Assembly: GCA_009693995.1 (NCBI GenBank)
Contig: SHWA01000001.1
Coordinates: 6,377-70,376, forward strand
From: Alphaproteobacteria bacterium
GTDB lineage: Bacteria; Pseudomonadota; Alphaproteobacteria; SHWA01
Direction of reading: 5' to 3'
DNA: 64,000 bases
Part shown: positions 46,211-48,742 of the stretch, one piece after another
How the letters are laid out: each line of letters opens with the position of its first letter
How positions within the stretch are numbered: the stretch's first letter is position 1
Translations under genes and position numbers: made by a program
The notes under the pieces: model-generated
What the model was told of the DNA's origin: nothing
Databases searched by the model: none
Seen by the model: only the letters and a program-made list of their open reading frames with translations

Positions 46211-48500
46211 TCACCACTCGATCCGCTCGACGCTCTCGAAGGTGATGGTCGAGCCGTCGGCGAAGGCGATGGTGCCCCCGGCATTGTTGGAGAGTTCGAC
46301 GTGGTCGGCGTCCGAAGCGGTGATTCTGTCGCCGGTATCGAGGGTCAGCGTCCAGTCGCCTGGCTCGCCCAGATCCTCCAGGCGGAGGGTATCGGTGCCC
46401 TTGGCACCGTCCATTACGTCGTTGCCGTCGCCACTGCCGAACAGGAACAGGTCTGCGCCCGCACCACCGGACAGGATGTCGCGGCCGGCACCACCGTCGA
46501 TGATATCTGCTCCGTTATCCCCAAGAATCACGTCATCGCCACTGCCGCCAAAGACCGTGTCGTCGCCGCCGCCGCTGTCGATCTTGTCGTTGCCGTTGCC
46601 GGCGCCGATCGAGTCATCGCCGCTGCCGCCGTAGACCACGTCACTGCCGTTACCGGCGTCGATCGAGTCATTGCCGCTGCCGCCGTAGACCAGATCGTCG
46701 CTGTTACCGGAGTTGATCGAGTCATTGCCCGCACCGCCATGGAGCGTGTCGCTGGCGTTGGTGCCATTGATTCTCGAGTTCGCGGACGAACCGCGGGCAT
46801 TTTGATCTTCGTCGAACGCGATGCCAACGGACAGGCTGCGCACGGTGGTGGCCGTATCGCCGTCAGCCTCGGTCGGACGCGCCGTTACGGTGAGCGAAAA
46901 GTCGCCGGCCTGGCCGGCTGCCGGAGTGATCTTCAGTCCCGCGGCCTGTTCGGCCGTCAGTGTCCAGGTGCCGTCGCCGTTGTCGGTGCCGGCGGAAAGC
47001 GCGGCGCCGGTGGGGATTCCAGCGATCGTGAGCGAGAGTGATCCCGAGCCGTCGGTGTCCGTCAGTGCCGCGCTCAGGTTCAAGGAGATCGCCTGCCCCG
47101 CGCTGCCAGTGACGTTGCTCACCATCAGGCTCGGCTCGTCGGCATCCCCCGCGACGGACACATTCAGGGTCTTAACATTGGTCGCGAGATCGCCATCGGA
47201 TTCGGTCGCAATGGCGGTGACGGTCAAGGTGAAGTCGGCGGACGAGTTCGCCGCCGGGGTCAGGGCCAGGCCGGAGAGTTGGGCGGCAGTCAGGCTCCAG
47301 GTACCGTCGCCGTTGCGGGTGCCGGCGGAGAGGGTCGCGCCGGTCAGGCACGCCGGCGATGCTGACGCTCAGACTCTCTGAGCCGTCGGTGTCCGCCAGG
47401 GCCGCGCTCAAGTCGAGCGCGATCGCCTGGTCCTCCGTCCCCGAGGCGTCCTTCACGGTCAGCGTCGGGACATCGGCATGGTCGCGGCCGCGCTCCGCTC
47501 GTTCCTGCTGGCGATCAGAACCGCTTTTCTGGCGCCCATTGCCATGATCCGACCCCTCGGCGTCGCGATTTGGCTCGTCCTGCCGGCGGTCACCCCGTTC
47601 CTGCTGCTGGCGGCCTGACTGATTGGTCCGCCCTCGGCTGGCACCTTCCTCGCGCCGGCTGTCGTCCCTATGGCCAGCCCGGTCGCTGTTGCCCCGATCG
47701 TCGTCATCATCACGACGATCACCTCGGTGGCCACCTTCCTCGTGCCGCTCCGGCCGTTCACTATCTCTGGCCGCGTCGCGCCGCCCCGCGCCATCCTCGC
47801 CCCGGCTCTCGTCTCTTCGGCCAGCCCGGTCGCCGTCACCTCGATCGTCGTCGTCATCATCCTCGCGCCCACGGACGGCACCAGAGTCGTCGTTGGCTGC
47901 TTCCGACGCTGGTTCGACCGCGACGACCGTGGGTGGATCGGCGGCAACGACCGCGACCTCGGCGGCTGCATCCGGCACCGGTTCGACCTCGGCGGCCAAG
48001 GATGGATCGGCGGCGACGACCTCGATCTCGGCCACCGCTTCCAGCGCCGGTTCGACCGCGACGACCGTAGGTGGATCGGCGGCGACGACCTCGACTTCGG
48101 CGGCCGCATCCGGCACCGGATCGTCCTCGGCTGCCGTCGGTGGACTGGCGGCGGCGACTTTGACCACATCAACTGCCTCCGGCACCGGATCGTTTCGCGC
48201 TGCCCTGGGTCGATCGGCGGCGGCGGCTTCGGGCGGGTCGATTCGCTGCGACGACGGAGTCGCTCCAGCCGTGCCGGCCACGGCAACGGCGTCGGGTGTG
48301 AAGGTTCGGGTAGCGTCGTCAGTGCCGATCGCAAGCGCATCGGCCCCAGGCTGAAATAGACCCGCGCCGCGCGCATCCGATTGTAGCGTCGGCCTCCGGG
48401 CGTCCGATGCCGCATCGGTCGGCAGCGCCTCGGTGGGCAGACCTTGGGCCGGCGGCGCCTCGGTTTCCGGCGCCCGCGCGCGCTCTGCACCATAATGCAC
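46211..48500 (-). pseudogene. Large repetitive secreted protein with C-terminal RTX (hemolysin-type Ca-binding GGxGxD) repeats; frameshift near 47350-47371
   Basis: Upstream frame: Ala/Pro/Asp-rich repeats and Arg/Asp-rich segment; downstream frame (46211-47368): Ig-like repeat copy + >10 GGxGxDxL nonapeptides and acidic C-terminus (T1SS signal-like); the track's 'M' at 47227 is an internal TTG (…DFTLTVTAIATESDGD… repeat continues upstream to stop at 47369-47371). Confidence 0.7.
47880..48200. repeat. Intragenic tandem ~60-nt repeats (protein repeat ~AAEVEVVAADPPTVVAVEP) inside the RTX gene
   Basis: Recurrent ggtggatcggcggcgacgacctcga... units visible in sequence. Confidence 0.5.
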
Positions 48501-48742
48501 GCTGCCGATAGCCGCTGGACTGTCGGGCTGCGAAGCCGGCGCCGAAGTCAGGTCGCCCAGGGTCGCCTCGCCGAGCGAGTTCGGGACCGAGTCCAGAAAG
48601 GCGAGCTCGGTCAGGTCGTTTTCTTCGCTGGCCGGCGCCTAGCGAGGATCGCGTTCGGTGGCCACGGGCACGCTCCTACCTGGAGACGACGACACTGCGC
48701 GTGGGCATCCTGCCTCGCGCGGCGCGATCCTAGCCGCCCAAT

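Follow-up and report, generated by a model that had tools for sequence, protein, structure and literature searches.

The giant RTX (repeats-in-toxin) adhesins, among them LapA of Pseudomonas fluorescens, MpIBP, FrhA and AhLap, carry tens to hundreds of Ca2+-stiffened immunoglobulin (Ig)-like modules, followed by a C-terminal RTX beta-roll and a signal for the type I secretion system (T1SS) (PMC12077191, PMC7493085). Here we compare these adhesins, as well as CyaA and the lipases and proteases exported by T1SS, with a locus in a 64,000-nucleotide stretch of an Alphaproteobacteria genome (assembly GCA_009693995.1, contig SHWA01000001.1, positions 6,377 to 70,376). This whole stretch is called the window, and all positions are given in its coordinates. 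With a probability of roughly 65%, the locus, which lies between 46211 and 48665, is what remains of a gene whose small product was of the RTX type, secreted by a T1SS, Ca2+-binding and located at the surface or outside the cell, and the gene is most likely dead. It is a degenerate member of the RTX proteins with bacterial Ig/cadherin-like repeats, within an unnamed small family.

The window gene shares with the giant RTX adhesins the succession of presumably Ca2+-stiffened Ig-like modules, RTX beta-roll and presumed C-terminal T1SS signal. In the case of AhLap, a profile of 28 aligned units of the module matched one solved structure, PDB 9CSE (9cse_A, E=3.6e-10), in which an Ig-like split domain adjoins an RTX-like domain of a 5047-residue Aeromonas hydrophila RTX adhesin (PMC12077191). 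In contrast to the giant adhesins, the window gene has only two modules and lacks both a ligand-binding insert and a recognisable N-terminal retention domain; in place of the retention module it has charged disordered sequence of about 0.8 kb. The N-terminal 426 residues matched no Pfam or NCBIfam family, the LapA-type retention domain with its LapG-type cleavage site included, and neither lapD nor lapG was found within the window, nor are there T1SS genes nearby. On these grounds, identity as a LapA-type adhesin was rejected. The predicted beta-roll and cap superposed best on blocks IV-V of CyaA (PDB 6SUS, 5CVW) and on T1SS lipases and proteases, which have the same nonapeptide consensus, but unlike these the window gene has no toxin, acylation, lipase or protease domain. 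Identity as a hemolysin or serralysin was also rejected, as NCBIfam scores were far below the cut-offs (e.g., 81 vs. 1000 bits).

Domain architecture and family

All features of the gene lie on the minus strand, where they are divided over two reading frames, A and B:

from just past TAG 48641-48639 to TGA 47174-47172, minus strand, frame A, open and including GTG 48500
47147-47480, minus strand, Ig/cadherin-like module 1, 111 residues, broken by the frameshift
47345-47346, minus strand, +1 frameshift, CCTGACC with a surplus T or G, located by comparison with module 2 and by module spacing
47368 to TGA 46213-46211, minus strand, frame B, open
46823-47146, minus strand, Ig/cadherin-like module 2, 108 residues, intact
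46385-46768, minus strand, RTX nonapeptide block of 12 regular and 2 degenerate repeats, forming a beta-roll
46214-46384, minus strand, acidic C-terminal cap and presumed T1SS signal region, ending ...GTIAFADGSTITFESVERIEW
46211-46213, minus strand, stop codon TGA

The RTX block was recognised by Pfam as HemolysinCabind (PF00353) in eight stretches, with E=1.3e-27 and 95.8 bits against a cut-off of 23. By eye, twelve nonapeptides follow each other in exact 9-residue register, from HGGAGNDSI to SGGAGADLF, and there are two degenerate ones besides. A preliminary description of the locus, made from the letters alone, had counted more than 10 nonapeptides in the C-terminal 330 residues; the number was right, but they are confined to the last ~190 residues. 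The acidic tail that it described is present, with 14 D/E vs. 3 K/R in the last 60 residues. An AlphaFold2 model of the frame-B open reading frame (ORF), based on a 12-sequence alignment, had a mean predicted local distance difference test score (pLDDT) of 84. In this model, module 2 is a beta-sandwich, the beta-roll consists of 13 three-residue strands at 9-residue spacing (pLDDT >90), and the C-terminus is capped by another beta-sandwich (pLDDT ~90). Foldseek placed the model nearest to RTX blocks IV-V of CyaA (E=3.8e-9); other top matches were a type-I-secreted Pseudomonas lipase, the EC domains of classical cadherins and the cadherin-like modules of SraP. Thus Pfam, the model and Foldseek all bear out the RTX-type, T1SS-substrate-like architecture proposed earlier.

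The two ~100-residue repeat modules of the preliminary description were also recovered, with lengths of 111 and 108 residues and a DNA identity of 67-68%. As expected of coding sequence, they show an excess of differences at codon position 3, which served as a positive control for the tests described below. The same 108-111-residue module was found 530 times in 138 homologue sequences, and comparison of the window modules with 26 homologue units gave identities of 36-63%. Both window modules follow the pattern ADAPxL...LTDTDGSE...SGVPxGAxLSAG...DGTWTL...ITPP... Most of the 28 aligned units match Pfam Big_9, Cadherin_5 and Cadherin_4 (25 match Big_9 and 23 match Cadherin_5 at E<=0.01). The window modules score just under the Pfam gathering scores; module 2, for instance, reached 20.6 bits for Cadherin_5 (cut-off 26.5) and 21.6 bits for Big_9 (cut-off 23.6). 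Judged by these profiles, a relationship to Cadherin_5/Big_9/Cadherin_4 holds at the superfamily level only.

The relationship to other proteins is seen directly in P0081 (746 residues), P0117 (666), P0074 (736) and P0036 (1159), which share the whole C-terminal architecture with the window gene and are 36-49% identical to it over the C-terminal 55%. They belong to a recurrent but unnamed family of 660-1160-residue proteins from Rhodospirillales-like Alphaproteobacteria and metagenomes, annotated in their sources as 'tandem-95 repeat protein', 'calcium-binding protein' or 'large repetitive protein'. The family order is an N-terminal motif, an acidic low-complexity linker, Ig/cadherin-like modules, an RTX beta-roll and a C-terminal cap. 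The family cap ends in SGTIxLxDGSxxxFxGVExIxW at the extreme C-terminus; the window protein conforms to this in ending GGTIAFADGSTITFESVERIEW, while relatives end ...GTVTMEDGSVLTFDGVEKLTW and ...GTVELEDGSTITFEGVEKLEW. A phmmer search with a 95-residue C-terminal query aligned residues 2-95, and with them the full cap, to the extreme ends of 15 homologues. Such conservation of an acidic cap is consistent with an uncleaved C-terminal secretion signal.

Queried with residues 1-71 of P0081 and P0117, an exhaustive HMMER search retrieved 20 cluster representatives at E<=0.001. In most of these the alignment begins near residue 1 and includes a conserved motif of ~65 residues, MADPRGTxLTxEEQQLAAELMAxVD...LGGG...VDR...PQRDDIDPGTLLSTVHxGS. 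This motif, for which we found no Pfam model, heads P0081, P0117, P0121-P0132 and P0043, all outside the window. It may serve to retain the protein at the T1SS pore or to bind a chaperone. The window gene agrees with the P0081-like family in the order of its parts, in its 108-112-residue modules with the DTDGSE motif, in its RTX block and in its cap. It differs in that the 65-residue N-terminal motif is at best faintly recognisable, in that the linker is longer (~390 residues) and far richer in Arg/Asp and Ala/Val/Pro, and in that the gene is frameshifted and probably also has a nonsense codon. The family genes examined, those of P0036 and P0074, stand alone, with no adjoining T1SS genes.

From established knowledge of RTX proteins, a mechanism can be proposed for the living relatives and for the intact ancestor, which would have been a protein of ~815 residues in five parts. 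A short N-terminal segment would be followed by a long, intrinsically disordered charged linker, probably grown by in-frame tandem duplication of 69-nt and 147-nt units, by two Ig/cadherin-like beta-sandwich modules with the presumed Ca2+-site motif DTDGSE, by an RTX beta-roll of 12-14 turns and by the conserved acidic cap with its putative uncleaved secretion signal. Led by this signal, the protein would be exported unfolded, C-terminus first, through a channel of ATP-binding cassette (ABC) transporter, membrane fusion protein (MFP) and TolC. Outside the cell, Ca2+ binding to the beta-roll and modules would drive folding, nucleated at the cap and the beta-roll, after which the Ca2+-stiffened Ig-like modules would extend from the cell. 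This scheme of export and folding is the general RTX mechanism (PMC7493085, PMC12077191). With only two modules, and with a long disordered charged linker in the place of a retention domain, the ancestor would not have formed a LapA-type fibre but a small Ca2+-binding protein that was extracellular or loosely associated with the surface.

Lesions and decay of the neighbourhood

Frames A and B are joined by a single extra base at 47346/47345. At this site module 1 reads ATC GCC GGC GTG CCT G ACC GGC GCG ACC, while its counterpart in module 2 reads ATC GCT GGA ATC CCC ACC GGC GCC GCG. The distance between matching segments of the two modules is 334 nt ahead of the break and 333 nt beyond it, which implies one extra base. 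The break noticed in the preliminary description at 47350-47371 is therefore real, but it lies a few bases away. Deletion of one base (47345 or 47346) yields a continuous product of 762 residues from GTG 48500. At ~760-820 residues and with two modules, the repaired product is small for its class, and the earlier epithet 'large' does not suit it. Because the frameshift lies inside module 1, the N-terminal product lacks the RTX block and the secretion signal. RTX T1SS substrates have a continuous ORF from the start to the C-terminal signal; here the frameshift interrupts it, and hence the locus is filed as a pseudogene of the RTX T1SS-substrate kind.

The preliminary description left the N-terminus unclear, since frame A is open for 46 codons upstream of GTG 48500, up to TAG 48641-48639, with no ATG, GTG or TTG between. 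This description of the frame was accurate, and GTG 48500 has no preceding Shine-Dalgarno site. Further upstream, the same frame offers a better candidate:

48673-48677, minus strand, AGGAG Shine-Dalgarno-like site, 7 nt upstream of GTG 48665
48663-48665, minus strand, GTG in frame A, probable ancestral start
48639-48641, minus strand, in-frame TAG, codon 9 of the putative ancestral ORF, probable nonsense lesion

Combinations of AGGAG with a start codon occur only 16 times on both strands of the window (128 kb). GTG 48665 is followed by eight codons and then by the TAG, and the read-through product is VATERDPR*APASEENDLTELAFLDSV...AAIGSVHYGAE. Its beginning (VATERDPR*APASEEN...) aligned weakly with the family N-terminus MADPRHAPLTPEEQ. 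The match to P0081 (MADPRHAPLTPEEQQIAAELMAAV...LLSTVHAGSH) was also weak (BLASTP E=0.044), with the TAG aligned to His5 of P0081. In a phmmer comparison with P0081, the product scored 15 bits, a His was placed at the stop position and 0 of 3000 shuffled sequences did as well. We consider it fairly probable, if by a modest degree, that translation of the ancestor began at GTG 48665 and that the TAG is a nonsense lesion. The suspected N-terminal extension is thus probably real and appears to reach GTG 48665 through the in-frame TAG. In its present state, the gene would be killed by the extra base at 47346/47345, with the TAG eight codons after the probable start as a possible second lesion.

The frameshift does not stand alone, as four other genes are damaged within an 8-kb patch at 43.7-51.9 kb:

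43717-45569, minus strand, sulfatase, split into two frames at ~45030
48842-49468, minus strand, DctP, solute-binding protein of a tripartite ATP-independent periplasmic (TRAP) transporter, signal peptide joined to profile positions 130-281 of 286
49224-51253, plus strand, fused DctQ-DctM TRAP permease, frameshift at ~50994-50999
~51400-51955, minus strand, fragment of a YbfB-type major facilitator superfamily (MFS) transporter, Pfam MFS_4 positions 2-147 of 364

The N-terminal part of the sulfatase, with its CxPxR motif, is encoded by the ORF 44778-45569 (Pfam profile 1-74) and the remainder by the ORF 43717-45222 (profile 142-299); the break falls in a C5 run, and a sixth C would restore the frame. 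The dctP gene, which is divergent from dctQM, looks as if it has suffered an internal deletion of ~110 residues. The break in dctQM falls in a C6 run, where C7 would restore ...IIILPPLLLPMIKAAG..., and the last 77 profile positions lie in another frame. The MFS_4 fragment abuts the end of dctM exactly where GC content jumps from ~0.65 to ~0.74. Possibly, this junction is a deletion or insertion boundary of the lower-GC patch (45.5-51.25 kb). The GC content of the decayed patch is 0.63-0.70, below that of the flanks, with the jump at 51.25 kb. Elsewhere in the window, ~45 ORFs have essentially full-length Pfam matches. Since truncations such as those of DctP and MFS_4 cannot be base-calling errors, the patch is taken as genuinely decaying DNA. 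That the RTX gene is a pseudogene within such DNA appears probable, perhaps strongly so.

Alternative readings and the N-terminal half

The N-terminal half of the gene consists of three segments:

48244-48638, minus strand, non-repetitive N-terminal region in open frame A, with GTG 48500 inside
47899-48243, minus strand, five tandem 69-nt units encoding 23-residue repeats rich in A/V/P/E/D (Tandem Repeats Finder and repeat search)
47466-47885, minus strand, 140-residue R/D/G/E-rich polyampholyte tract

The repeat region is composed of 28% A, 21% V, 15% P, 12% E and 11% D. The preliminary description had noticed these A/E/V/P repeats, which are real, but had given them a period of ~60 nt (~20 residues) instead of 69 nt (23 residues, five units). 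The charged tract that it reported is likewise confirmed, at 140 residues (47885-47466), with 23% R, 20% D, 16% G and 10% E, a net charge of -9, and an internal 147-nt duplication (47641-47712/47788-47859) that is 83% identical. Such sequence is less unusual than it was thought to be, since intact relatives carry a low-complexity acidic or charged linker at the same place. P0081, P0117, P0074 and P0036 have 170-270 residues of acidic low-complexity sequence before the first module, P0124 (SRRVRGRRERESEERD...) and P0129 have R/E/D-rich stretches in their linkers, and the linkers of P0122 and P0123 contain tandem repeats. One further idea, that the R/D tract is a frameshifted and decayed third module, was rejected because neither of the other two minus-strand frames resembles a module.

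Several observations weigh against a dead gene spanning both halves, and they have to be set against its rivals. For the lesions, comparison with an intact copy is precluded, as no orthologue was found by the protein search, by one scan of genome contigs or by one scan of metagenome contigs. Both ORFs looked up as exact proteins had no match, and neither did the locus in a megablast search against plasmids; the metagenome-contig scan with the whole repaired protein, whose patterns were partly poly-Asp peptides, gave only weak RTX-repeat matches among the matches listed. As the preliminary description stated, the window has no T1SS genes: ABC, MFP and TolC domains are absent from the ~45 ORFs scanned with Pfam. 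A hidden Markov model (HMM) of the family N-terminus gave only 2.2 bits on the N-terminal region, with 97 of 3000 shuffles scoring as well, and did not single out the locus among six-frame translations and window tiles; the N-terminal homology is therefore only suggestive. The shifts in the sulfatase and DctM each lost one C from a C-run (C6/C7), a typical mode of sequencing error. If such errors explained the RTX frameshift as well, the gene would be intact and encode a functional RTX protein of ~80 kDa with an unusually charged N-terminal linker. Repeat-rich sequence with 70% GC is indeed error-prone, removal of one base gives a perfect module 1 and a continuous 762-residue ORF, and modules, RTX block and cap are otherwise undamaged, with a confident AlphaFold2 model. 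However, the loss of a single base from a C-run is the indel that arises most often in nature as well as a frequent sequencing error, and the RTX frameshift lies in CCTGACC, which is not a homopolymer. Moreover, the lesions are limited to one 8-kb patch, whereas the ~45 other ORFs are intact, several of them with C6/G6 runs; base-calling errors do not produce the truncations of DctP and MFS_4; and a TAG follows the probable start. A Logan contig (L001, run SRR8561390) is 100% identical to the window over 44911-46388, the sulfatase frameshift site included, although it may derive from the same reads and thus may not be independent. We therefore regard an intact, wrongly sequenced gene as unlikely. 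The earlier suspicion that the frameshift was chiefly a matter of repeat misassembly fares no better, because a single extra base in a unique, non-homopolymer context within a decayed patch is more likely to mark a real pseudogene. It seems quite doubtful that the gene is intact in vivo and that its ~390-residue N-terminal half, newly expanded and disordered, functions as a spacer or in surface interaction; if so, the A/V/P/E repeats and the near-balanced 140-residue Arg/Asp polyampholyte would form a kind of N-terminal region undescribed for RTX proteins, and in-frame tandem duplication would have produced it recently. Least probable of all is a functional frameshift, either as a programmed or phase-variable switch or as a way for one locus to encode both a charged N-terminal protein that stays in the cytoplasm and an RTX fragment that is initiated on its own and still secretable. 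In known RTX proteins the C-terminal signal alone suffices for T1SS export, and frame B does offer an in-frame TTG at 47227 and a downstream ATG. Yet neither codon is preceded by a Shine-Dalgarno site, the break has no slippery heptamer or homopolymer, and the neighbouring genes are plainly decayed.

The same balance includes the question whether only the C-terminal ~420 codons are a gene remnant, with the 1.2 kb upstream (47.48-48.64 kb) being non-coding minisatellite-like DNA or the antisense of a degraded plus-strand gene. Here the evidence against the full-length reading comes from codon usage. On a synonymous-codon score trained on 21 intact window genes, host genes reached +0.31 +- 0.05, and the modules and RTX block, read in their correct frame, +0.13 to +0.26. 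The N-terminal half, in contrast, scored -0.14 to -0.26 in frame A and +0.10 to +0.23 in the in-register antisense frame, so that the first ~390 codons lack a host-like synonymous codon preference. By themselves, these codon scores favour an antisense artefact. GC content at the third codon position (GC3) is also higher in the in-register antisense frame than in frame A, where GC at the first position (GC1) is 0.86-0.90 and GC3 only 0.66-0.74 across the N-terminal half, as in the antisense of a high-GC3 gene. At least 240 codons are open in four of the six frames across 47.5-48.5 kb, so a long open frame alone is no evidence of coding here. A protein search with the N-terminal 395 residues alone found nothing at E<=1, no frame of the region has a Pfam match, and the 69-nt units lack a codon-position pattern of purifying selection in every frame. 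Nevertheless, other evidence favours frame A. It continues directly into module 1 at the usual boundary (HADVPTLTV), and the repeat lengths, 69 and 147 nt, are both divisible by 3. Of the 12 differences within the well-conserved core of the 147-nt duplication, 8 occupy the third codon position of frame A. Raised GC1 and lowered GC3 are likewise seen in the linkers of intact relatives (0.73 vs. 0.62, and 0.77-0.79 vs. 0.84-0.89, respectively). An antisense gene, suggested by GC3 and the codon scores, was rejected as the main reading because plus-strand ORFs over the N-terminal half have no family match, because antisense third positions vary least among the repeat copies, including the 69-nt units, and because the relatives' linkers share the GC trend. 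We conclude from these sequence patterns that frame A is probably the historical coding frame, and a remnant restricted to the C-terminal part appears somewhat less likely still than a sequencing error.

Under the preferred reading of a decayed gene with both halves, the N-terminal half would be a fast-evolving disordered linker grown by duplication. It seems to be an exaggerated form of the family's low-complexity linker and not a domain of a new type. The one unusual feature of the locus is how extreme the linker is in its Arg/Asp and Ala/Val/Pro composition, for which the best explanation is duplication-driven low complexity with selection weak or absent. A linker sequence under hardly any selection would be compatible with a dead gene. 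More generally, the linkers of this family appear to evolve through tandem duplication, and their signature of raised GC1 and lowered GC3 can make them resemble antisense artefacts in high-GC genomes. The in-register antisense of the charged tract (47382-48359, plus strand) encodes very hydrophobic, transmembrane-like peptides, such as MVAAALRSFLLAIRTAFLAPIAMIRPLGVAIWLVLPAVTPFLLLAA, with a GC3 of ~0.9. The two strands form a textbook mirror of sense and antisense hydropathy, which could mislead gene callers in high-GC genomes.

Annotation and other observations in the window

An apt annotation for the locus would be a frameshifted RTX/Ig-like-repeat pseudogene, rather than two hypothetical proteins or a novel toxin. 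Beyond annotation the locus itself matters little. The genes around it mark out a stretch of the chromosome that is in decay and lower in GC. Its intact relatives form a recurrent family of 'mini RTX adhesins' with a 65-residue N-terminal motif of their own.

Scans of the decayed patch for tRNA and Rfam families were empty, and a promoter and terminator scan gave nothing useful. Directly downstream of the RTX gene lie two small genes on the minus strand (45308-46143), encoding proteins of 151 and 124 residues without a Pfam family, which are the only intact genes of the patch. The same pair, with ~75% DNA identity, occurs in the chromosomes of two Alphaproteobacteria metagenome-assembled genomes, OZ241357.1 and OZ251449.1 (9998-10786 in locus L002 and 10014-10794 in locus L003). 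A genome-contig scan anchored on the 151-residue gene showed that these two genomes share only the two small genes with the window and no RTX gene. The context of the pair is unrelated there, with aconitase-X-like genes and, in the one locus examined for it (L002), an ORF resembling an XRE-type helix-turn-helix protein. The pair may represent a mobile two-gene module. Outside the patch, the 645-codon stop-to-stop ORF at 25346-27283 on the plus strand matches positions 4-194 of the 289 in the Amidohydro_2 profile, and may be another partial gene or merely a divergent one.

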